Below are positions 2,131 to 15,546 of a stretch of 16,644 nt of DNA, in pieces (the stretch's first letter is position 1; each line of letters starts with the position of its first letter). Origin of the DNA: a virus; the UHGV virus genome UHGV-0060989; one strand, written 5' to 3'. Under the pieces are notes generated by a model. It did no database searches and was not told the origin of the DNA. It worked only from the letters and a program-made list of their open reading frames with translations. A program made the translations under genes and the position numbers.

Positions 2131-2314
2131 CTCTTTCACTCCATCCGCGATGAACCATGAGAACGTCGTTGACGATGGCGTGCATTTTCCCGTCTTTATC
2201 ATCAACGTATTTTCTGACCGTACCGCGACTACATTTCAGTCTGCGTGCTACTTCTGTCTGGTTTCCGTATGCTTCAACGAGCATGTCTGGAATGGTTTTT
2301 ACTGAGAACGTCAT
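2108..2314 (-). CDS. ninH: NinH
   Basis: 68 aa [39 protein letters not shown]... matches my recollection of lambda NinH. The start overlaps the ninG stop (ATGA). Confidence 0.85.
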
Positions 2315-2913
2315 GCGGCCTCACTTCTGCTATTTCGCAGGTCTTTGAGTTTCTGCTGATACTCCGCCTTGATGGCCCTGCACTCTTCGACAGTCCAGCG
2401 ATGGCGGTTATGGTTTGATTCGATTTCGTCTACTGCTTCCTGCCCGATGCGATTAATCAGTTCGACGCGATACGGAACGAGATTTCCGCTTTTGTGCTGG
2501 TTGCACACCACGCATTGCTTGTGAATATTGCGTTCATCAAATCGGAGTTGAGGTGCCGCAGCAGTTGTCCGGTAATGTCCGGCATCCCACTGAGCAGACG
2601 TGAGCGTTCCGCACGAGATACATGGTAAGTCGCGGTCTCTTTCTCTGATGAAGGCGTTTACGGCTTGTTGGGCTTGTTTAATCCAGTAACTGCGGGGCTT
2701 TAAGGCGAGTTTTCGAATCTTCAGTTTATCTTTCTGTTTCTGCTCCTCTCGTCGTCGTTTCTTCTCTGCTGCTTTTTCCGCTTTTTCGCGTTCTTTACTT
2801 CGTCGTTCGAGTGCTATCTTGGTTCCACAAATCTCATTACACCAATATTGATTTTGATATTTTGGTATAAACCATTCATTGCAACATTTACATTTCCTTC
2901 GATAGATTCGCAT
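2311..2913 (-). CDS. ninG: NinG / Rap (recombination-associated protein), divergent N-terminus with its own start
   Basis: From the Met at 2913 the product is [58 protein letters not shown]..., collinear with lambda NinG after its first ~10 residues. A strong AAGGAG site lies 5 nt upstream of this ATG. The 220 aa track ORF is an upstream extension. Confidence 0.85.
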
Positions 2914-3454
2914 AAGTGCTCCTTTCGTTGCCGGAAAAATCACCGTAATACTTATCTCGGGCTTCTTCAGCAACTAGTACCGCTAACTCCAGATCATCAA
3001 AGCATCCGAAGTGTTTACTCTTGCCATGGAAACCTAGCCTAACATTCCATTTTTTCTGTCGTTTGTGCCAAGTAACTCCTCTGCAACCTGATTTGCTATT
3101 CTTTCGGATCCTTATATTTCTTGAATTTTCTATTGGCAGGCATTCTCTTAAATTTTCTGGCCTATTGTCGGTCCTAATTCCATTAACGTGGTCAATTTGA
3201 CCAGCAGGCCAACGATTATGAGTTATGTAAAAAACTAAGACGTGAGTTTTATATCTACGCCCATCTATCATGATCATTGAATAACCGTTGGAATCAAAAG
3301 TTCCAGCAACACTATTTAATGCTATCCTTCCCTGAGTGGGAACTTTCCATCTAAATACCCCGGTAGATTTATCGAAACTTAGTAACTCAAATATCCTTTT
3401 AACAGTTAAATCTTCTCTTTTACGGTTACATCGTCTTCGCGCTGGTTTAGCCAT
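2888..3454 (-). CDS. HNH homing endonuclease with C-terminal AP2 DNA-binding domain, fused in frame to the first ~10 codons of lambda-type ninG
   Basis: The product starts MAKPARRRC, identical to the lambda NinG N-terminus, then continues ...[23 protein letters not shown]...[23 protein letters not shown] (HNH_3 motif) and ...[49 protein letters not shown] (AP2-like). The body is AT-rich relative to its flanks. Confidence 0.8.
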
Positions 3455-3641
3455 CATCTTCTTCCTCGTGCATCGAGCTATTCGAATCGCTCATCAGCTC
3501 TGCACAGCAGTACTCACACACGTGAACTTCCAGCACATGCAACTTCTGACCGCAGTTAGCGCACGTTAAAGCCCGCTCGACGCTTTCTTGTTCGTAACTT
3601 CGATTTGGGTCAATCACCTTGTTTTCCTCATGCGGTTCCAT
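3447..3641 (-). CDS. ninF: NinF
   Basis: The C-terminal 64 aa of the 153 aa track ORF, from Met90: [64 protein letters not shown]. This resembles lambda NinF, and its stop overlaps the ninG-type start as in lambda. Confidence 0.7.
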   Translation of the reverse strand: MEPHEENKVIDPNRSYEQESVERALTCANCGQKLHVLEVHVCEYCCAELMSDSNSSMHEEEDDG

Positions 3642-3790: not shown

Positions 3791-3930
3791 ACGTCCTCCT
3801 TTTCCTGCGGTAGTGGTAACACCCCTGTTGGTGTTCTTTCACACCGGAGACACCATCGATTCCAGTAAGGTTGATTTGGTCGGAAGCGGTTATCTTCTTT
3901 GCATTCACCGCACCGATAACATCGCATCAT
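3757..3930 (-). CDS. ninD: NinD (Cys-rich small protein)
   Basis: [57 protein letters not shown] (57 aa), read from the internal Met pair of the 77 aa track ORF. The start overlaps the ninB stop. Confidence 0.7.
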
Positions 3931-4367
3931 GCTGCCCGGTCTCCCCATCGCGCTTTCCACTCCAGAGCCAGTCGCGCTTCGTCTGACCACTTAACGCCAC
4001 GCTCTGCACCGAATGCCTGTATAAGCTCTAATAGCTCCGCAAATTCGCTTACACGCATCCTGCTGGTTGACTGGCCTATTACCACAAAGCCATTCCCGGC
4101 AAGGTTAGGAACAACATCCTGCTGCTTTAATGCTGCGGTAAACACACACTTCCAGCTTTCTGCATCCAGCCAGCGACCATGCCATTCAACCTGACGAGAG
4201 ACGTCACCTAAGCAGGCCCATAGCTTCCTGTTTTGGTCTAAGCTGCGGTTGCGCTCCTGAATGATCACTACGATTGGCTTGGTTGGGTCTGGAAGGATTT
4301 GCTGTACTGCGTGAATAGCGTTTTGCTGATGTGCTGGAGATCGAATTTCAAAGGTTAGTTTTTTCAT
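3927..4367 (-). CDS. ninB: NinB (recombination mediator)
   Basis: From [34 protein letters not shown]... the 146 aa product matches lambda NinB. A GGAGAGGG ribosome-binding site lies upstream. Confidence 0.9.
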
Positions 4368-4380
4368 GACTTCCCTCTCC

Positions 4381-4415
4381 CCCAAATAAAAAGGCCTGCG
4401 ATTACCAGCAGGCCT
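4381..4415 (-). terminator. tR2-like intrinsic terminator between the replication genes and the nin region
   Basis: Minus-sense AGGCCUGC-uggUaauc-GCAGGCCU (8 bp stem) followed by UUUUUAUUUGGG. Confidence 0.6.
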
Positions 4416-7659: not shown

Positions 7660-8310
7660 ATGAATACACAACTGATGGGTGAGCGTATTCGCGCTCGCAG
7701 AAAAGAACTCAAGATTAGGCAGGCTGCCCTTGGCAAGATGGTTGGCGTGTCTAATGTTGCTATTTCCCAATGGGAGCGATCTGAAACTGAGCCCAATGGC
7801 GAAAACCTATTGGCCTTAGCCAAGGCTTTGCAGTGCTCCCCTGATTACCTGTTGAAAGGAGAGGATAGTCTTTCAAACATTGCCTATCACAGCAGGCATG
7901 ATCCAAGAGGTTCGTATCCTCTAATTAGTTGGGTAAGCGCAGGATGTTGGATGGAAGCTGTAGAGCCATATCATAGGCGTGCAATAGATAACTGGTACGA
8001 CACAACGGTAGATTGTTCTGAAGACTCTTTTTGGCTCGACGTTAAAGGCGATTCAATGACTGCCCCGGCAGGACTGAGTATTCCTGAGGGGATGATTATT
8101 CTCGTCGACCCAGAAGTCGAACCACGTAATGGAAAGCTGGTAGTCGCCAAACTTGAAGGAGAAAACGAGGCGACATTCAAAAAGTTAGTTATTGATGCCG
8201 GTAGAAAATTCCTGAAACCACTCAATCCACAATACCCAATGATTGAAATCAATGGGAACTGTAAAATCATTGGCGTTGTCGTTGATGCCAAGCTAGCAAA
8301 CCTTCCTTAA
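7660..8310 (+). CDS. c2: C2 repressor (P22-type CI-family repressor with LexA-like autocleavage domain)
   Basis: 216 aa MNTQLMGERIRARRKELKIRQAALGKMVGVSNVAISQWERSETEPNGENLLALAKALQCSPDYLLKG..., closely matching P22 C2. It has an N-terminal HTH and a C-terminal S24 peptidase-like domain. Confidence 0.95.
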   Translation: MNTQLMGERIRARRKELKIRQAALGKMVGVSNVAISQWERSETEPNGENLLALAKALQCSPDYLLKGEDSLSNIAYHSRHDPRGSYPLISWVSAGCWMEAVEPYHRRAIDNWYDTTVDCSEDSFWLDVKGDSMTAPAGLSIPEGMIILVDPEVEPRNGKLVVAKLEGENEATFKKLVIDAGRKFLKPLNPQYPMIEINGNCKIIGVVVDAKLANLP

Positions 8311-8514: not shown

Positions 8515-8624
8515 CCAGAACTTGAGTGGTTTTGGGGATGGCGCGAATTGCAGCTGCAAGACAGCGATCGAGAAGATAAGCACCTCGACGCGTCATGCGC
8601 CAAAGCCACTTAAAGGAGACCATC

Positions 8625-8930
8625 ATGGTAACCATTGTCTGGAAAGAATCCAAAGGTACGGCAAAAAGCCGCTACAAAGCTCGCAGAGCAGAACTTATTG
8701 CCGAGCGACGCAGTAATGAAGCACTGGCGCGAAAAATTGCGCTAAAGCTCTCTGGTTGCGTCAGAGCAGACAAAGCAGCATCACTAGGAAGCCTTCGCTG
8801 CAAGAAGGCAGAAGAAGTCGAGCGTAAACAGAACCGTATTTACTACCGGAAGCCACGGAGTGAAATGGGTGTGACTTGCTCAGGCCGCCAGAAGCAACGC
8901 GGAAAATCAATTCCAGCTTATTACGATTGA
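8625..8930 (+). CDS. N: Antiterminator N (phi21-type arginine-rich motif)
   Basis: From the Met preceded by AAGGAG: MVTIVWKESKGTAKSRYKARRAELIAERR... The ARM GTAKSRYKARRAELIAER matches phi21 N as I recall it, and the C-terminus ...GVTCSGRQKQRGKSIP resembles the lambda N C-terminus. Confidence 0.85.
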   Translation: MVTIVWKESKGTAKSRYKARRAELIAERRSNEALARKIALKLSGCVRADKAASLGSLRCKKAEEVERKQNRIYYRKPRSEMGVTCSGRQKQRGKSIPAYYD

Positions 8931-8938
8931 GGTGAGCC

Positions 8939-9076
8939 ATGCTCAAGAAAGTCAAACGTCGACTTTACAAAGAAGGTAGATATTCATGCCAGTTGCCAAA
9001 ATGCGACACAACAAAATGGAGTGTCGATGATTGGTGTAACTGGATAGATAGATACGGAACTTGGTGGGATAAATAA
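8939..9076 (+). CDS. Hypothetical small protein (45 aa, Cys/Trp-rich)
   Basis: MLKKVKRRLYKEGRYSCQLPKCDTTKWSVDDWCNWIDRYGTWWDK with a GAGGTG ribosome-binding site, immediately after N. Not in the ORF track. Confidence 0.35.
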   Translation: MLKKVKRRLYKEGRYSCQLPKCDTTKWSVDDWCNWIDRYGTWWDK

Positions 9077-9130
9077 CAGGTAACTTAAGCGGATTTATTT
9101 TCGCAGCAAACCACTTATTTGAGGTGAGAT

Positions 9131-9382
9131 ATGGAGTTTCATGAAAGTGCGATTTGTGATTTTCGCGCTAACGCAAATTCAGTAAAACCACAGCCAATTG
9201 CAGTTCTTTTTAAAACAATGGGTGCGTGGGCTGTTTTATGCTTCGCCTCTGATGACACTGACGCGAGAATGGCAATAGGCCAAGAGATGGAGATGGACCC
9301 GACAAACGATGAATTCATAATTTATGGCGCTCCATCTAATTACTTACTTGATACCTGCAACATTTACAACAAGGCTGCCTGA
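9131..9382 (+). CDS. Hypothetical protein (83 aa), immediate-early position
   Basis: ORF with GAGGTGAGAT upstream of the ATG, same strand and operon as N. No family recognised. Confidence 0.55.
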   Translation: MEFHESAICDFRANANSVKPQPIAVLFKTMGAWAVLCFASDDTDARMAIGQEMEMDPTNDEFIIYGAPSNYLLDTCNIYNKAA

Positions 9383-9421
9383 TGGTGGCCTTTATTTTTG
9401 GCATAAACAACAGAGGCTAAC

Positions 9422-9718
9422 ATGGAATTTAAAGGTACTGAAGGTAAGTGGGAAATAATGATGGATGGCGATGAGATTAAAATCATCCAGGCAGACTCTC
9501 TTGAAAATGGCACAGGCTGGCGTTCGTATATTGCAATCTGTGAGGAAGTTCAATGCATTGAAGATGCCAATCTAATAGCGGCAGCACCTGACCTTCTCGA
9601 AGCACTTCAGTTATTACTTAAGCAATCCAAAAATAGAACAACGACAACATATCCAGAATGGTATGGAGCTGTTAATAAAGGTCTCGCAGCAATCAGAAAA
9701 GCCATAGGTGATGAGTAA
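9422..9718 (+). CDS. Hypothetical protein (98 aa) with an Ead/Ea22-like IAAAPDLLEAL motif
   Basis: ORF with an AGAGG ribosome-binding site. The motif ANLIAAAPDLLEALQ resembles ANAEFIAAANPATVLALL in the ORF at 13437..13964. Confidence 0.55.
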   Translation: MEFKGTEGKWEIMMDGDEIKIIQADSLENGTGWRSYIAICEEVQCIEDANLIAAAPDLLEALQLLLKQSKNRTTTTYPEWYGAVNKGLAAIRKAIGDE

Positions 9719-9876
9719 TGAATAAGAAATACATTGTTGAAGTTATAGAGCGAGAAACGAAAGAAGTAATTAAACATTTCGAATTTGATAATTATAGAAA
9801 AGCTGACCGCGTAGAAGAAGGATTGTTGCGACAAAGTAATCTCGAAAAATTTGATGTTGTCATGCGATGCGAATAA
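9718..9876 (+). CDS. Hypothetical small protein (52 aa), AT-rich
   Basis: MNKKYIVEVIERETKEVIKHFEFDNYRKADRVEEGLLRQSNLEKFDVVMRCE. The ATG overlaps the preceding stop (TAATG). Not in the ORF track. Confidence 0.4.
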   Translation: MNKKYIVEVIERETKEVIKHFEFDNYRKADRVEEGLLRQSNLEKFDVVMRCE

Positions 9877-9969
9877 GCGCCTATAGCAGATTTACGAGTC
9901 TGCTATGTGAGCAATGTCGCTCGTAACTAAACAGGAGCCGACTTGTTCTGATTATTGGAAATCTTCTTT

Positions 9970-9994
9970 GCCCTCCAGTGTGAGGGCTTTTTTA
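9970..9994 (+). terminator. tL1-like intrinsic terminator
   Basis: GCCCTC-cagtgt-GAGGGC followed by TTTTTTAT. Confidence 0.6.
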
Positions 9995-10009
9995 TATGCA
10001 TACCAATAA

Positions 10010-10030
10010 CGCTTCACTCGAGGCGTTTTT
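10010..10030 (+). terminator. Second, weaker hairpin plus T-tract (tandem terminator)
   Basis: CGCTTC-actc-GAGGCG followed by TTTTT. Confidence 0.4.
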
Positions 10031-10060
10031 CGTTATGCAATCAAATATAAGGAGTTACCC

Positions 10061-10195
10061 ATGATGCACTTTCAGCTCGCGGGTAGCGGCGTCATGTCCG
10101 CTTTCTACCCGCACGAATCTGAATTATCACGCCGAGTTAAACAACTAATCAGAGCAGCAAAGAAACAACTGGAGGCGTTATGCGCAATGAAATAG
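10061..10195 (+). CDS. cIII: CIII-like protein (FtsH inhibitor family), 44 aa
   Basis: MMHFQLAGSGVMSAFYPHESELSRRVKQLIRAAKKQLEALCAMK with a strong AAGGAG site. The central region parallels lambda CIII (AG...ESLLERITRKL) and the position is right after the tL1-like terminators. Confidence 0.6.
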   Translation: MMHFQLAGSGVMSAFYPHESELSRRVKQLIRAAKKQLEALCAMK

Positions 10196-10332
10196 CCATT
10201 AATCACCAGATGCTTCGTGCGGCACAAAACAAAGCAGTAATAGCCAGATTTATTGGTGATTCAAAAATGTGGCTTGAAGCAAATAAAGCGATGAAATCAG
10301 CTATCAACCTTCCGTGGTATCGCAGGAAATGA
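10180..10332 (+). CDS. Kil-like small protein (50 aa), tentative
   Basis: MRNEIAINHQMLRAAQNKAVIARFIGDSKMWLEANKAMKSAINLPWYRRK. Position directly after cIII with overlapping start. The resemblance to lambda Kil rests on my uncertain recollection of that sequence. Confidence 0.4.
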   Translation: MRNEIAINHQMLRAAQNKAVIARFIGDSKMWLEANKAMKSAINLPWYRRK

Positions 10333-10413
10333 GTTTTACAGATAACTGGTCAGACGAAGAATTCATTCGTCAGATGAACAAAATGCTCAATCAGCACAAA
10401 GAACAGGAGAAAG

Positions 10414-10725
10414 ATGATGATTCTGACTCTGAATGATAAGCGTGAAATATCGCAAATAATCGCAAGTTTTACTGATGAAGATTACGAGCGAATCAACAGT
10501 GAAGTTGATCGCCTCTGCAAACGTTGCGACCCAATAAGCGAAATGCTTCGCTCATATAAACCAGATGAACACACTAAGGACGCTATCGACTGGTTGGAAG
10601 ATGATGACTGTAACTATCAGGAAAAAGCCGCTGAATGGTTCTGGGATGCAATAACCGAAAGAGTTAAGGCTGAATATGCCTTCGCAATATTCAAACGCAG
10701 ACACATTTATGGAGAAGCAGCATGA
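10414..10725 (+). CDS. Hypothetical acidic protein (103 aa) at the gam/abc position upstream of recT
   Basis: ORF with an AGGAG ribosome-binding site. Its stop overlaps the recT start. No family recognised. Confidence 0.6.
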   Translation: MMILTLNDKREISQIIASFTDEDYERINSEVDRLCKRCDPISEMLRSYKPDEHTKDAIDWLEDDDCNYQEKAAEWFWDAITERVKAEYAFAIFKRRHIYGEAA

Positions 10726-11633
10726 GCAATATCGTTGAATTCGTTAAACAGCAGGAGCAGTTATTCTGCGGAGCATTGACTGAACAGACGGTGACATGGG
10801 CTAAGGAAAGCCAGTTTGCAATTCAGTATTTCCAGAAAAATGATTACCTTGCTAAAACGGCACTGGCAAATCCAACCAGCGCACAGAACGCCATCATCAA
10901 TGTTGCGGCGATCGGCATCACCTTAAACCCGGCCAGCAAACTTGCTTATCTAGTTCCGCGCGACGGCATGGTTTGCCTTGATATCAGTTATATGGGATTG
11001 CTCCATATTGCAATGGAGTCTGGTGTTATCTCATGGGGTCAGGCAAAACTTGTTCATGCTAACGATACCTATGAGTCAAACGGGCTTGATAAAGCACCAA
11101 CCCATAAATACAACGCCTTCGGTGATCGTGGTGATATCGTTGGCGTTTACTGCACAGTTAAGACGCCAGCAGGTGATTATCTAACGGAAGAGATGAGTCT
11201 GGCTGAAATTGAGGCTGTAAGGAAAACAAGCAAGGCAGCATTCAGCGATAAAGGACCATGGGTAAATCACTGGAATGAGATGGCGCGAAAGACGGTCGTA
11301 AAGCGTGCAAGCAAGTATTGGCCTAAGGCATCACGTCTTGATAGTGCTATTCACGTACTAAACGAAGAAGAAGGTGTGTGGACTGAACCAGTTATGCCGC
11401 ACAAATCAGAGGAAGATATCCGCGAAGATGAACGGAAACGCCAGCAGGAAATAATGGATAAAGCACAACTTCTTTGTGATGAAATGGATCAGGCAGAAAA
11501 CATTGATGATTTGAAGCGATATTTTGCAGAAGCATATCGCCTGACATCTGGAATGAAATTGCAGCAGAACGTACAAGCCATTTACATAGAATGCAAAGCG
11601 AAACTGGAGGTTGCCAGTGAGCAAACTGTATGA
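10722..11633 (+). CDS. recT: RecT-family single-strand annealing recombinase
   Basis: 303 aa; the segment GPWVNHWNEMARKTVVKRASKYWPKA matches the conserved RecT core (compare Rac RecT GPWVTHWEEMAKKTAIRRLFKYLP). Confidence 0.85.
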   Translation: MSNIVEFVKQQEQLFCGALTEQTVTWAKESQFAIQYFQKNDYLAKTALANPTSAQNAIINVAAIGITLNPASKLAYLVPRDGMVCLDISYMGLLHIAMESGVISWGQAKLVHANDTYESNGLDKAPTHKYNAFGDRGDIVGVYCTVKTPAGDYLTEEMSLAEIEAVRKTSKAAFSDKGPWVNHWNEMARKTVVKRASKYWPKASRLDSAIHVLNEEEGVWTEPVMPHKSEEDIREDERKRQQEIMDKAQLLCDEMDQAENIDDLKRYFAEAYRLTSGMKLQQNVQAIYIECKAKLEVASEQTV

Positions 11634-12099
11634 AATAGCCAATGAATACGCAAAATTGATGGATTCAGATTTAGAACCAGAGATGATTGCTGACACAATA
11701 GAAGGCATGGAAGGAGAATTTACCGATAAAATAGAGCAACTTCTTTCCGTCATTAAAAATGAATCTGGTTATGCTGAACGCCTCAAGGAAGAGGCAAAGT
11801 CACTGAATGAGCGAGCCGCAGTAATTCAAAATAAGATTGACAGCATCAAATCATATATAGCGTCATCGCTTGAAATGGTTGGCAAGAAAAATATTCGAGC
11901 AGGTATTCACCAGGTAACAATCCGCAAACCGTCAGAAACTGTAGAAATCATCGACTCAAGCGCCCTTCCTCCTGAATACGTTGAGTTTGAAACGACAATT
12001 AAAGCCGACAAACTGGCAATCAAACACCAACTAAAAGCAGGAATAAATATCCCCGGCGCTCAACTCAAAGTTGGGAAACCTTCACTTCTTATCAAATAA
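11617..12099 (+). CDS. Siphovirus Gp157-like protein (recombinase-associated), probable GTG start
   Basis: About 160 aa, helical and acidic at the N-terminus. GGAGG lies 6 nt upstream of the GTG. The family assignment is from memory of Gp157 features and is moderately confident. Confidence 0.55.
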   Translation: MSKLYEIANEYAKLMDSDLEPEMIADTIEGMEGEFTDKIEQLLSVIKNESGYAERLKEEAKSLNERAAVIQNKIDSIKSYIASSLEMVGKKNIRAGIHQVTIRKPSETVEIIDSSALPPEYVEFETTIKADKLAIKHQLKAGINIPGAQLKVGKPSLLIK

Positions 12100-12110
12100 C
12101 GGTATCGCCT

Positions 12111-12425
12111 ATGAAAAAGACTCCATGGGAGAAATGGGAAGTCGATTTCTTGCGCGAAGTAGCGGCGACAATGCCAGTTGAACTTATCGCTGAAAAACTG
12201 GAAAGGACTGAAAAAGCAGTAATGGCGAAAGCAACAAGGATTGGCGCTGACATTGTTAGCCGACTTCGTGGAAGACGATGGACAAGAGCCGAAGTATCAC
12301 TTTTCGGTAAGTTCTCCGCAGAAGAAATAGCAATTGCAACCTGCCGCTCAATTTATTCAGTAAGAGCTATGCGATACAAGCTAAAAAAACTCGATGAAGA
12401 AAGAGCAGGCATACGAATAAATTAA
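12111..12425 (+). CDS. Hypothetical protein (104 aa) with two internal Myb/SANT-like repeats
   Basis: Two ~45 aa repeats, each beginning W-x-(K/R)-x-EV and containing an EIA...R core ([12 protein letters not shown]...[10 protein letters not shown] and [24 protein letters not shown]). Confidence 0.55.
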
Positions 12426-12441
12426 CAAAGAGGAATTAATC

Positions 12442-12606
12442 ATGAGAGGACTTGCATACAATCCCGGCATTCTTCCGGCAGAAATGATTATTCGCCAACG
12501 CGTAAAGCCAATGCCATCGAGAGAGGAATTGCTTAAGAGAAATTCTTTTCCATCAGTGAATCAAAACAAATATCTGAATGAGATGTGGCGGAGTGGGAAT
12601 AAATGA
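12442..12606 (+). CDS. Hypothetical small protein (54 aa)
   Basis: [54 protein letters not shown] with an AAGAGG site. Its stop overlaps the next ATG. Not in the ORF track. Confidence 0.4.
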
Positions 12607-13148
12607 AACAAATGACACTAATTAAGATGGATGGTTTTCTGAAAGGTAAATGCATCCCACGAGATTTAAAGGTTAACGAAACAAACGCTGAATATCTGGT
12701 GCGTAAATTTGCTGAAGCGGAGGCCAAGATTTCGGCTCTGTCCGAATACCACCAGAAAGCGATTGAGTCAATTAAGCAGGCTGATGCGGCTGTTAAGTTG
12801 GCACACGAGAAGTTTTCGGCGCTGGCGGCGGAGAATGCGGGGCTGAAGTCTGGCGCTATGGACGAAATCAAGGTTATCAACCGTGGAGGGCAGGCATATT
12901 GCGTAAAAGATGGAGTGCAAGTTAATCCCATGTATGCAAGAGGGTGGAATGACTATCGCGCAAAGTCTATGCAATCAGACACCCCAGCCACCGACGCTTT
13001 CCTGGCTGAAATTGAACGCAAAGCAATCCGCAAGTTCATTAACAGCATTGAACACATCCTGCGTGACAAGTTGTCACCGTATGACACCGAAGAGATGCTT
13101 GAGGCTATGCGTATTTTTCTGGAAGAACAGAGTGGTGAGCAAAAATGA
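12603..13148 (+). CDS. Hypothetical coiled-coil protein (181 aa)
   Basis: ORF with a GGAG ribosome-binding site and an Ala/Glu/Lys-rich heptad-like central region. No family recognised. Confidence 0.6.
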
Positions 13149-13450
13149 CAATCACAAAACAACGGGTAGAAGAAATCATATCCCGCATTGAAATGTATGG
13201 ACATGGTGCAGGATATACCGCTGACGAGGTTTATGACCTAGCTGTACTGGCGCTGAATTTATCAAATATCGCAAACCTGAAGCGATACGAGCTTGATATG
13301 GGAGGTTGTGACTCATGCGGTCAGGATTGTGGCGCTGACATGACTGAAGATTCTGATGGCGATTATGTCCTGTTTGATGACGTGGTTAAGTTGTTTGAGT
13401 TTGATACATTCGAAAGCCCAGCAAGGGAGACAACCAGTGAGCAAGATTGA
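13145..13450 (+). CDS. Hypothetical protein (101 aa) with acidic C-terminus
   Basis: ORF with a GGTGAG ribosome-binding site and start overlapping the preceding stop. Confidence 0.55.
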   Translation: MTITKQRVEEIISRIEMYGHGAGYTADEVYDLAVLALNLSNIANLKRYELDMGGCDSCGQDCGADMTEDSDGDYVLFDDVVKLFEFDTFESPARETTSEQD

Positions 13451-13964
13451 CTATCAGGCACTGCGTGAGGCGGCAGAAAAAGCAACGTGTGGCGTGTGGT
13501 CGCTCGAATATGGAGAGGAGAGATTTGATGCTGGTGATGCGCTAATTCATCGTGAAGTTGTTGGATATCTTCCCATTTGCAGAATTGAAGGAGCGCATCC
13601 TGAAAGCGGTTTCGATGAAGATTTCCAAATGGAACAGCAGGCCAATGCTGAATTCATCGCCGCAGCCAATCCGGCTACCGTGCTGGCACTACTGGATGAA
13701 CGGGAAAGAAACCAGCAATACATCAAACGCCGCGACCAGGAGAACGAGGATATTGCGCTAACGGTAGGGAAGCTGCGTGTTGAGCTGGAAGCCGCAGAGA
13801 AGCGCATTGCAGAACTGGAAGCACGGGAAATATCGCTCCCAGAACGTAGCAGCATGCTTCATCGAACAGATTTTCACGATGATTACCAAACGGTAATGGC
13901 ATACAAAGTTTCTGAAGTCATCGATGCAATCCGCGCTACTGGCATTCGCATCAAAGGAGAGTGA
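13437..13964 (+). CDS. Ead/Ea22-like protein (about 175 aa), probable GTG start
   Basis: Contains ANAEFIAAANPATVLALLDERE and a coiled-coil C-terminal region (LRVELEAAEKRIAELEA). GGGAGA lies upstream of the GTG. The longer track ORF begins in the previous gene. Confidence 0.55.
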   Translation: MSKIDYQALREAAEKATCGVWSLEYGEERFDAGDALIHREVVGYLPICRIEGAHPESGFDEDFQMEQQANAEFIAAANPATVLALLDERERNQQYIKRRDQENEDIALTVGKLRVELEAAEKRIAELEAREISLPERSSMLHRTDFHDDYQTVMAYKVSEVIDAIRATGIRIKGE

Positions 13965-13965
13965 G

Positions 13966-14157
13966 ATGAACGGACAAATATCAATTGTTCGACCGGGAGC
14001 ATGTGACGATTGCGAGATACGAATGATTATTCGTCTGGCGAGGGGGAAAACAATAACTGCTCTCATTACTCCAGAAAATATCGCATTAGCATTAACAGGA
14101 AAGTCAGACCTGCCAGTAGAGCTAAAGCTGCGAAATGTTGAGATTAAGGTGAAATAG
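13966..14157 (+). CDS. Hypothetical small protein (63 aa)
   Basis: MNGQISIVRPGACDDCEIRMIIRLARGKTITALITPENIALALTGKSDLPVELKLRNVEIKVK with an AAAGGAG site upstream. Confidence 0.45.
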   Translation: MNGQISIVRPGACDDCEIRMIIRLARGKTITALITPENIALALTGKSDLPVELKLRNVEIKVK

Positions 14158-14159
14158 CT

Positions 14160-15020
14160 ATGACCACTATTACCAAAGAGCGACTGCTGACAATCAAGCA
14201 GTGGCGCGAAACATACGGACCTGGTAGCAACGTTGTACTGCCAGCAGAAGAAGCGGAAGAACTGGCACGAATTGCTCTGGCATCGCTGGAAGCAGAACCA
14301 GTTGCTTATATTTTCAAACATCCGGCCGGGAAATTATTCTGGGCTTTAACGGATGAAAGCAATAAAGAGCAAGCTGACGTTATTCCTGTTTATGCTGCCG
14401 CGCCTGCGTCGGTTGTGCCGGATAATGCATCAGAGCCTCTTGCTTATGCTTACAAAGAGCTTACGCCTGAGATTATGCGCAACCATTTAGCTGTATTCGA
14501 GCGATATGGAATAGCCCCAAACGATAGCTCTACCACAATTCAGGCACTGCGAATCGCGCTGGATGGCATAGAGCGGAGCGACGCGATGCTTCATGGTGCC
14601 GAACCTGTAAGCCAAACTTACAAGTTGCCAGTTAATACACCTTGCAAAGATGCGCCAGCCCATATCTGGCTGCAAACGGCTGGAGTATGGCCAGAAGATG
14701 GCGAGTTAAGCGAATTAACGTGGTGCAGCCACAATCAGCACCATGATGACACGCTATATGTTCGAGCTGACTTGGTAAATGGCAACTCTCCGGTAACTCC
14801 GGATGGTTGGATAAGCTGTAGTGAGCGAATGCCTGAAATTAGACAAACAGTTATTGGATGGAATGGATATGCAGTTAGACAATGCGTATATACAAGGAAT
14901 GAATATGCCAAGACACAGAAAGGCAGAGAGCCAAGGTTTGAAACCTTAACTGGTATATGGCATGGAGTAACCCACTGGATGCCGCTACCAGAACCGCCGC
15001 AGGAGGTTAACCATGGCTAA
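14160..15020 (+). CDS. Hypothetical protein with C-terminal DUF551-like domain (286 aa)
   Basis: The C-terminal segment DGWISCSERMPE...GWNGYAVRQCVY...THWMPLPEPP is typical of the DUF551 phage domain. An AAGGTG ribosome-binding site lies upstream. Confidence 0.65.
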   Translation: MTTITKERLLTIKQWRETYGPGSNVVLPAEEAEELARIALASLEAEPVAYIFKHPAGKLFWALTDESNKEQADVIPVYAAAPASVVPDNASEPLAYAYKELTPEIMRNHLAVFERYGIAPNDSSTTIQALRIALDGIERSDAMLHGAEPVSQTYKLPVNTPCKDAPAHIWLQTAGVWPEDGELSELTWCSHNQHHDDTLYVRADLVNGNSPVTPDGWISCSERMPEIRQTVIGWNGYAVRQCVYTRNEYAKTQKGREPRFETLTGIWHGVTHWMPLPEPPQEVNHG

Positions 15021-15050
15021 CCTGCAACTTGACGTCAAAGGTGAATAACA

Positions 15051-15078
15051 ATCCTCGCATTCGCGGGGATTTATTTTA
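15051..15078 (+). terminator. Intrinsic terminator after the DUF551 gene
   Basis: ATCCTCGC-attc-GCGGGGAT (8 bp stem, one G-U pair) followed by TTATTTTAT. Confidence 0.5.
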
Positions 15079-15120
15079 TCTGAACTCGCTACGGCGGGTT
15101 TTGTTTTATGGAGATGATAA

Positions 15121-15288
15121 ATGCACTTCCGAGTCACAGGTGAATGGAATGGAGAGCCATTCAACAGGGTTATCGAAGCAGAGAACATCAACGACTGCTA
15201 TAACCACTGGATGATATGGGCGCAGATAGCGCATGCAGACGTAACCAATATTCGAATTGAAGAACTGAAAGAACACCAAGCCGCCTGA
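15121..15288 (+). CDS. Hypothetical small protein (55 aa) flanked by terminators
   Basis: MHFRVTGEWNGEPFNRVIEAENINDCYNHWMIWAQIAHADVTNIRIEELKEHQAA. GGAG lies 7 nt upstream. Not in the ORF track. Confidence 0.45.
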   Translation: MHFRVTGEWNGEPFNRVIEAENINDCYNHWMIWAQIAHADVTNIRIEELKEHQAA

Positions 15289-15300
15289 TGGCGGTTTTTT
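15279..15300 (+). terminator. Strong intrinsic terminator immediately upstream of xis
   Basis: AGCCGCC-tgat-GGCGGTT followed by TTTTTT. The stop codon of the 55 aa ORF lies in the loop. Confidence 0.65.
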
Positions 15301-15301
15301 C

Positions 15302-15330
15302 TTGCGTGTAATTGCGGAGACTTTGCGATG
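15302..15330 (+). promoter_or_regulatory. pI-like CII-dependent promoter (TTGC-N6-TTGC) at the xis start
   Basis: TTGCgtgtaaTTGC at 15302..15315, as at lambda pI. Confidence 0.5.
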
Positions 15331-15546
15331 TACTTGACACTTCAGGAGTGGAACGCTCGCCAACGACGCCCAAGAAGCCTTGAAACAGTTCGTCGATGGG
15401 TACGCGAGTGCAGGATATTCCCTCCTCCGGTTAAGGATGGAAGAGAGTATCTGTTCCACGAATCAGCGGTAAAGGTTGACTTAAATCGACCAGTAACAGG
15501 TAGCCTTTTGAAGAGGATCAGAAATGGGAAGAAGGCGAAGTCATGA
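15328..15546 (+). CDS. xis: Excisionase Xis (lambda-type)
   Basis: 72 aa MYLTLQEWNARQRRPRSLETVRRWVRECRIFPPPVKDGREYLFHESAVKVDLNRPVTGSLLKRIRNGKKAKS matches lambda Xis. Its 3' end overlaps the int start. Confidence 0.95.
   Translation: MYLTLQEWNARQRRPRSLETVRRWVRECRIFPPPVKDGREYLFHESAVKVDLNRPVTGSLLKRIRNGKKAKS

Follow-up and report, generated by a model that had tools for sequence, protein, structure and literature searches.

Exonuclease-less recombination modules in lambdoid phages

In the available excerpts of a survey of lambdoid phage recombination (Rec) modules (Zheng et al., 2025; PMC12315714), a nuclease is reported to be absent from 84 of 246 modules, and phage HK140 is described as having a RecT-type annealase (i.e., "SAP-4"), an anti-RecBCD protein (i.e., "MuGam"), and neither a phage nuclease nor a single-stranded DNA-binding protein (SSB). 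Nuclease-less modules are likewise present among Abc2-encoding phages, and the P22 type co-opts RecBCD through Abc2 (Wilkinson et al., 2022; PMC9836394). Lambda Gam mimics DNA and blocks all RecBCD activities (PMC5218532), and the excerpts of the survey report a Gam-like predicted fold for phi80 GamL (PMC12315714). Here, we analyzed the recombination genes in a stretch of 16,644 nucleotides (nt) of the virus genome UHGV-0060989 (hereafter, the window), namely, those for a small acidic protein (hereafter, X), a RecT-family annealase, a Sipho_Gp157 protein (hereafter, Gp157), and a protein of 104 amino acids (aa) related to P22 Abc1. We estimate a probability of roughly 60% that an intact lambdoid Rec module of the HK140 type is present here, that it belongs to the exonuclease-less class (i.e., an anti-RecBCD protein plus an annealase), and that it operates by the mechanism proposed below. 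The combination of RecT and Gp157 without an exonuclease is an ordinary, catalogued one, and what is new is the model-based assignment of X to the Gam fold.

The cassette is widespread and well preserved. The 2.5 kb around it is 97 to 98% identical at the DNA level to phages Kapi1, HK140, mEpX1, Gally, and Louie, and the four-gene block is present in 266 of 5,426 complete Escherichia coli genomes (approximately 5%). Among the 80 viral contigs carrying X, the cassette is intact in 79, and no gene for lambda Exo, RecE, Erf, Gam, or Abc2 was found near it. HK140 shares the four genes, and the annotation of its complete genome lists no exonuclease.

Search for a phage exonuclease

RecT was matched by PF03837 (E = 3.4e-32; 112 bits, cutoff of 24; residues 31 to 216), phrog_148 (E = 1.5e-91), and TIGR00616 (82 bits, cutoff of 52.65). 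Gp157 was matched by PF05565 over the whole profile (positions 1 to 162 of 162; E = 1.1e-37; 130 bits, cutoff of 28.6) and by phrog_253 (E = 3.5e-54), which is labelled "Mu Gam-like end protection." The other open reading frames (ORFs) were covered as follows: those on the plus strand between 10414 and 15020 were compared with Pfam and PHROGs, those at 8595 to 10436 and 15121 to 15546 with PHROGs, and ten large ORFs on the minus strand with Pfam; eight ORFs were compared again with NCBIfam. In these ORFs, no match was found to YqaJ/lambda Exo (PF09588), RecE-like DUF3799 (PF12684), PD-(D/E)XK, or DnaQ families, and the only nucleases detected were endonucleases of the nin region (i.e., NinG/Rap and an HNH protein). 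Since the same searches detected YqaJ in Cronobacter phage ENT47670 and Erwinia phage Midgardsormr38, and DUF3799 in Salmonella phage SEN22 and in locus L173, the negative result in the window is informative.

A first-pass annotation of the window had described RecT accompanied by a Gp157-like protein, with no recognizable exonuclease partner, and the family matches bear this out. The YqaJ, RecE, and Exo profile searches that it proposed for the downstream ORFs found no exonuclease domain in the plus-strand ORFs from 10414 to 15020, and its 103-aa protein (X) showed no match to an unrelated family. However, it took pairing with a 5'-3' exonuclease as usual for RecT-type annealases, which does not agree with the proportion of nuclease-less modules given above or with HK140 as a named example in the excerpts of the survey; the missing exonuclease partner is real but has already been described. 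The annotation also overlooked two points. Since Gp157 is classed as MuGam-type both by PHROGs and in the excerpts of the survey, where the HK140 copy is called MuGam (PMC12315714), the module already contained a recognized anti-RecBCD candidate. In addition, the product of the gene at 12111 to 12425 belongs to the same PHROG as P22 Abc1.

X is predicted to be a Gam-fold protein

X is acidic (isoelectric point [pI] of 4.65; 24 D+E versus 15 K+R residues) and is encoded directly after the cIII and kil region, upstream of the annealase gene in the early-left operon, which is where lambda has gam. The first-pass annotation had placed this acidic protein at the position of either lambda gam or P22 abc. 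The acidity and the gam position hold, whereas the abc genes of P22 lie downstream of erf, and the P22 gene at the position in question is arf. X has no Pfam match at E <= 0.1 and no NCBIfam match. It falls in phrog_3486, a family without an assigned function, and is labelled "hypothetical protein" in all of the phage and genome annotations examined. An exhaustive HMMER search yielded 54 matches, approximately 35 of them full-length at about 100 aa. All are acidic (median pI, 4.65), with a median net charge of -9, compared with -10 for GamS (i.e., lambda Gam). BLASTP comparisons of X with HK97 Abc2 (E = 1.6) and P22 Abc1 gave nothing.

The relatives of X occur in several genomic contexts. An X-RecT-Gp157 order is also found in locus L175, where the identities to the window proteins are 32% (X), 71% (RecT), and 61% (Gp157). 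X is followed by RecT and a YqaJ exonuclease in ENT47670 (X, 49% identity) and Midgardsormr38 (39%), by a RecE-like protein and RecT in L173 (32%), and by a RecE-like protein and a 189-aa protein in SEN22 (96%). In every visible neighborhood, the X relative is encoded directly 5' of a recombination gene, with a stop-start overlap of 1 or 4 nt. The placement of X thus follows the gam-bet-exo pattern, independently of the presence of a nuclease. In phage Dewey (Gam-RecT-Gp157-Abc1-like), a true lambda-type Gam (PF06064; E = 1.5e-50) stands in place of X. Among 80 loci with this Gp157, X is present in 75 and lambda Gam in 2, and none has both; in this slot, lambda Gam and X substitute for each other.

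Two of the loci have other features in the vicinity of this slot. In one viral contig (L258, 459 to 1481), X is replaced 5' of an otherwise intact recT-Gp157 pair by a transposase-like ORF of 340 aa, which is encoded on the opposite strand and appears IS21-like by impression from its sequence. In SEN22 (L087, 5127 to 5696), the 189-aa protein, which has no Pfam family and falls in phrog_11517, is encoded after the RecE-like PD-(D/E)XK protein, at the place expected for an annealase; the excerpts of the survey class this module as having an SSB and a nuclease but lacking an annealase (PMC12315714).

At the sequence level, the signal toward Gam is weak. In a BLASTP comparison of X with Dewey Gam, "TKDAIDWLEDDDCNYQEKAAEWF" aligns with "SKNAISKAFDDDVEFQERAAEFI". 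Profile-profile alignment with hhalign is colinear for X and the Gam family (P = 0.002; residues 5 to 89 versus 6 to 94) and for X and phi80 GamL (P = 0.009); GamL, a distant Gam homologue, gives P = 5e-6 against Gam. These values alone are no proof that X and Gam are homologous. The predicted structure adds a further line. An AlphaFold2 model built from a 36-sequence family alignment that contained no Gam sequences, and without templates, reached a predicted local distance difference test (pLDDT) value of 91.1 and a predicted template modeling (pTM) score of 0.77. When this model was compared with 350,542 chains by Foldseek, five GamS chains were the only matches with a template modeling (TM) score of >0.5, although their E values were poor. 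GamS was the best structural match among 48,164 chains, by a clear margin, and the predicted three-dimensional fold of X is that of GamS. Foldseek against BFVD was uninformative.

Several observations count against this assignment. The hhalign probability for X versus Gam is just 12 to 14%. X matches neither the Gam Pfam model PF06064 nor the GamL NCBIfam model NF033500, with which phi80 GamL scores 148.6 bits. A search of the PDB sequences with the X-family profile did not retrieve 2UUZ and returned only noise (i.e., designed proteins and S15). A first AlphaFold2 model, made from five close sequences, was unusable (pLDDT of 50); the quality rose once the alignment was deepened with the HMMER matches. 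Finally, the N-terminal region of the X monomer model is split into two helices (residues 5 to 16 and 20 to 34), whereas GamS has a single long helix that plugs the RecB channel.

On balance, four lines lead to lambda Gam (i.e., substitution in the slot, position in distant relatives, the weak sequence signal, and the predicted fold), and X is very probably a Gam-fold protein as judged from the model. By analogy, it is probably a RecBCD inhibitor that mimics DNA as Gam does. Since neither PF06064 nor NF033500 matches it, X represents a distinct sequence type, and it is probably the third such type among Gam-fold RecBCD inhibitors, after lambda Gam and phi80 GamL. The proposal in the first-pass annotation that the protein is a candidate RecBCD modulator, made from position only, has therefore gained support from the predicted fold, the placement in distant relatives, and the mutual exclusion with true Gam.

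Gp157 and the C-terminal tail of RecT

The class of Gp157 among end-binding proteins is suggested by family labels and by genomic context. In Firmicutes phages, sipho_gp157 and Mu gam are interchangeable neighbors upstream of erf/sak4 modules (PMC8093625), and in phi80, ENT47670, and Midgardsormr38, a lambda-type exo occupies the slot of Gp157 after homologous RecT genes. These contexts, together with a phrog_323 neighbor (see below), fit a putative role in end protection rather than that of a nuclease. Mu Gam (PF07352), a Ku-like DNA-end-binding protein, resembles Gp157 in size (174 versus 160 aa), in its helical N-terminal half, and in having a phrog_323 neighbor, but the two belong to separate Pfam families (PF05565 for Gp157) and separate PHROGs (phrog_491 for Mu Gam and phrog_253 for Gp157). 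Direct comparison is less favorable to a relationship: PF07352 is not among the Pfam matches of Gp157, and hhalign against the Mu Gam family gave a weak local alignment of the C-terminal halves (P = 0.018; 74 colinear columns; residues 83 to 158 versus 82 to 164) from shallow alignments. The Gp157 profile found no meaningful match among the PDB sequences. A PF07352 match on the 181-aa ORF at 12603 to 13148 was dismissed as noise (E = 0.091; a short stretch, residues 29 to 62).

The C-terminal domain of lambda Beta binds Exo. The window RecT consists of an annealing domain (approximately residues 1 to 219), which is 59% identical to the corresponding part of phi80 Rec, and a tail of about 80 to 85 aa (approximately residues 220 to 303; 11380 to 11633). 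We aligned five RecT proteins (i.e., those of the window, L175, phi80, ENT47670, and Midgardsormr38). Their annealing domains are 48 to 81% identical. The tails of the two Gp157-partnered proteins (window and L175) are 51% identical, and those of the three Exo-partnered proteins (phi80, ENT47670, and Midgardsormr38) are 53 to 81% identical, while the identities between the two classes are 11 to 17%. The switch of tail class with the partner suggests, at the level of sequence comparison, a swapped partner-binding domain, and by analogy with Beta, Gp157 probably binds RecT through this tail. However, the pattern comes from five sequences whose two classes are also two clades, and because of the small sample and this coincidence, it is a lead, not a result.

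The 104-aa protein downstream of Gp157

The 104-aa protein (pI of 10.0) is a member of phrog_323 (E = 1.8e-19), as are P22 Abc1 (E = 1.3e-23) and Mu gp9 (E = 5.2e-29). BLASTP aligned it with Mu gp9 (E = 5e-5) but found no match to P22 Abc1; since the link to Abc1 is through phrog_323 alone, the relationship is remote. In Mu (L090, 1483 to 2326), gp9 adjoins gam just as the 104-aa gene adjoins Gp157, in the opposite order. A helix-turn-helix (HTH) protein of the Abc1/gp9 type and a Mu-Gam-type protein may thus form a conserved pairing.

A proposed mechanism

In the mechanism that we favor, X would block RecBCD, so that linear and rolling-circle phage DNA is protected and the way is cleared for the phage annealase. 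Gp157 would act like Mu Gam or Ku by binding double-strand ends, and it would probably be tethered to RecT via the partner-specific tail, as lambda Exo is to Beta. RecT would then anneal single-stranded DNA that is not made by the phage; it would come from replication forks and gaps or from the action of host nucleases, RecBCD excepted (e.g., RecJ with RecQ). The Abc1-like protein would serve as an accessory factor, as in P22. At other sites, the prophage encodes NinB/Orf, an accessory recombination function, and NinG/Rap. The main problem for this mechanism is the source of the single-stranded DNA, for which it offers no explanation should X shut off RecBCD completely and Gp157 cap the ends.

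A more elaborate version gives Gp157 the role of Exo as partner and loader of RecT. The protein would be a Ku/Mu-Gam-like end binder that docks on a dedicated C-terminal domain of RecT and hands the ends to the annealase, while the Gam-fold X keeps RecBCD away. We put this forward tentatively, as a possibility with the odds against it.

Alternative explanations

Two alternatives concern the function of X. It may not inhibit RecBCD at all but instead be an accessory or chaperone-like recombination partner (i.e., Arf-like), or act on another target, such as SbcCD or a defence protein, with its likeness to Gam reflecting a shared small helical fold. We regard this as rather unlikely. The marginal sequence similarity to Gam, the position in the place of P22 arf, and a stop codon that in all contexts examined overlaps the start codon of the following recombination gene would suit an accessory partner, and small helical bundles can converge on one fold. 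Yet the structural match to GamS stands clear of all other chains, and X agrees with Gam and GamL in length, acidity, and colinearity. Moreover, true Gam replaces X in otherwise identical cassettes and never accompanies it, and in phi80 the slot is held by GamL, ahead of a RecT with 59% identity. It is unlikely, too, that the module follows P22 in hijacking RecBCD instead of blocking it, with X and/or the Abc1-like protein turning the host enzyme into a resecting nuclease that feeds RecT, so that no phage exonuclease is needed. This explanation has the attraction that it would solve the origin of the single-stranded DNA, and both the co-option of RecBCD by Abc2 in P22-type modules without a nuclease (PMC9836394) and the presence of a cassette protein in the same PHROG as Abc1 are in its favor. 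However, Pfam and PHROGs gave no match to P22 Abc2 (PF11043) in the window, and no homologue of Abc2 lies beside the cassette in 80 loci. X is dissimilar to Abc2 and is instead predicted to fold like Gam, an inhibitor of every RecBCD activity. X also occurs together with phage exonucleases, where a hijack would be superfluous, and the role of Abc1 is undefined even in P22 (PMC9836394).

The other two alternatives concern the missing exonuclease, and both are made improbable by the family assignments and by conservation in viable phages. That Gp157 is itself the nuclease, either cryptic or as an adaptor recruiting a host nuclease, and replaces Exo enzymatically is very unlikely. Its gene is exactly in the exo slot after homologous recT genes, and the tail class of RecT changes with it, but Gp157 matched no nuclease family in Pfam, PHROGs, NCBIfam, or the PDB sequences, is classed as Mu-Gam-like by PHROGs and in the excerpts of the survey (PMC12315714), and is interchangeable in Firmicutes phages with Mu gam, not with exonucleases (PMC8093625). 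Least probable of all is a decayed remnant, from which the exonuclease was lost and which has ceased to promote recombination. Prophages often decay, and small modules are called "somewhat suspect" in the excerpts of Zheng et al. (PMC12315714). Against decay, the four genes are intact in the plaque-forming phages HK140, mEpX1, Kapi1, and Gally and are present in the 266 E. coli genomes, no reading frame is interrupted, stop codons overlap start codons, and the X-RecT-Gp157 order has been kept in a lineage in which protein identity has fallen to 32%, 71%, and 61%.

Gene organization of the window

Profile scans of the ORFs identify the window as the early region of a lambda-like prophage (Table 1). 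On the plus strand, the genes around the module follow the order cIII, kil, a 35-aa ORF, X, recT, Sipho_Gp157, and the gene for the 104-aa HTH protein. They belong to a pL-type operon that comes after a cI-sized ORF (7660 to 8310) and runs from an N-like gene through several small genes, cIII, kil, and the X-RecT-Gp157 region to ea-type genes (Ead/Ea22, DUF551), xis, and int. The minus strand carries genes for a holin, Q, a NinI-like phosphatase, NinH, NinG/Rap, an HNH endonuclease, NinF, NinB/Orf, a DnaB-type helicase, and an O-like initiator.

TABLE 1 Positions of the recombination genes and surrounding features in the window
Feature	Position	Strand	Family match or remark
NinG/Rap structure-specific endonuclease	2311-2973	-	PF05766, E = 5.5e-85; not an end-resecting exonuclease
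HNH endonuclease with AP2-like domain	2888-3457	-	Overlaps ninG 5' end; nin region
NinB/Orf recombination mediator	3927-4385	-	PF05772, E = 7.2e-54
N-like gene	8595-8930	+	phrog_271
Two terminator-like hairpins 5' of cIII	9970-10027	+	Equivalent place in HK97 is an annotated putative terminator
cIII-like gene	10061-10195	+	phrog_550, E = 2.6e-13
kil-like gene	10180-10332	+	phrog_2055, E = 1.2e-35
35-aa acidic ORF	10329-10436	+	phrog_2123/17766
X, 102-aa acidic protein	10417-10725	+	Alternative start at 10414 gives 103 aa
RecT-family single-strand annealing protein	10722-11633	+	PF03837
Sipho_Gp157 protein	11617-12099 (ORF 11611-12099)	+	PF05565
104-aa basic protein, two HTH-like repeats	12111-12425	+	phrog_323
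DUF2737 gene	12442-12606	+	PF10930, E = 5.9e-30
Terminator-like hairpins after ea-type genes, before xis/int	15050-15101	+	

The genes from kil through the 35-aa ORF, X, recT, and Gp157 to the Abc1-like gene are tightly packed, with stop-start overlaps where checked. The likely start of X is the second ATG (10417), which has AGGAG 7 nt upstream, and its stop codon overlaps the start of recT (ATGA). The likely start of Gp157 is the GTG at 11617, with GGAGG 6 nt upstream, and its gene overlaps the 3' end of recT by 17 nt. With these starts, X (102 aa) and Gp157 (160 aa) have the lengths of their database homologues. The hairpins upstream of cIII mark the upstream edge of the block and are presumably read through under N antitermination. 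Since the next strong plus-strand hairpins are those before xis/int, with no terminator-like hairpin on this strand between 10028 and 14284, the recombination genes are probably cotranscribed with their neighbors. HK97 has the DUF2737 gene after abc2, which makes this gene the downstream edge of an exchangeable recombination cassette.

As read from the DNA, the 35-aa ORF overlaps both neighbors, its ATG with the kil stop codon (ATGA) and its stop codon with the start of X. The ORF is identical to the N terminus of HK97 gp42 ("arf-like") at 16 of the first 21 residues (76%) and weakly matches P22 Arf, with "SDEEFI" in common. It may be a truncated Arf-like gene, left as a remnant at a mosaic junction. 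A fusion of the N terminus of this ORF to the C-terminal half of X is found in one E. coli protein (P0025).

Outside the module, the HNH endonuclease gene resembles a homing-type insertion. Two tRNA genes, tRNA-Thr (tgt; 731 to 806) and tRNA-Asn (gtt; 812 to 886), lie on the minus strand where the late operon begins, flanked by the genes for the Q antiterminator (950 to 1468) and the holin (165 to 488). The ea-type run on the plus strand (12603 to 15020) encodes 181-aa, 101-aa, Ead/Ea22-like, 77-aa, and 286-aa DUF551 proteins. As listed, the 202-aa Ea22-like ORF (13356 to 13964) overlaps the 101-aa ORF (13145 to 13450), and its true start is therefore probably further downstream.

Implications and comparison with known systems

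The X family, to which the annotations examined assign no function, occurs in approximately 5% of the complete E. coli genomes and in several phages that have been studied, and it probably constitutes a third type of Gam-fold RecBCD inhibitor. In the excerpts of the survey (PMC12315714), MuGam is the only anti-RecBCD gene named for HK140, SEN22 is listed without one, and just three phages are said to carry two genes of one function; X was apparently not recognized there, since HK140 is counted with MuGam alone and SEN22 with none. If our assignment is true, HK140-type modules hold two genes of the anti-RecBCD type, and SEN22-type modules hold one. The published tally would then change, as would the correlation of Chi-site density with anti-RecBCD genes reported in these excerpts. 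A further Gam-type inhibitor, like a RecT whose partner is not Exo, could serve in recombineering and in work on annealases without a dedicated nuclease.

Compared with lambda Gam (GamS; PF06064; PDB 2UUZ, 2UV1, and 5MBV), X shows approximately 15% sequence identity, and the C-terminal helix is longer in the X model. The gamL-rec-exo module of phi80 is similar to that of the window in that a small acidic protein (GamL; 93 aa) is encoded directly 5' of a RecT-type annealase, but it has a lambda-type Exo in the Gp157 slot and a different C-terminal tail on RecT. P22 (c3-kil-arf-erf-abc1-abc2) shares with the window the absence of a phage exonuclease, a small acidic gene 5' of the annealase, and a phrog_323 gene downstream; however, its annealase is Erf, its RecBCD modulator is Abc2 (PF11043), and it has no gene of the Gp157/MuGam type. 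If Gp157 does serve as the loader of RecT, the module would perform an exonuclease-independent, end-tethered form of single-strand annealing, unlike lambda Red, in which Exo loads Beta, and unlike P22, in which Abc2 hijacks RecBCD. The module of HK140, mEpX1, Kapi1, and Gally is the one of which the window holds a copy: X is 99 to 100% identical at the protein level, the gene order and the early-left operon are the same, and the window shows no substantive difference from this HK140-type module.

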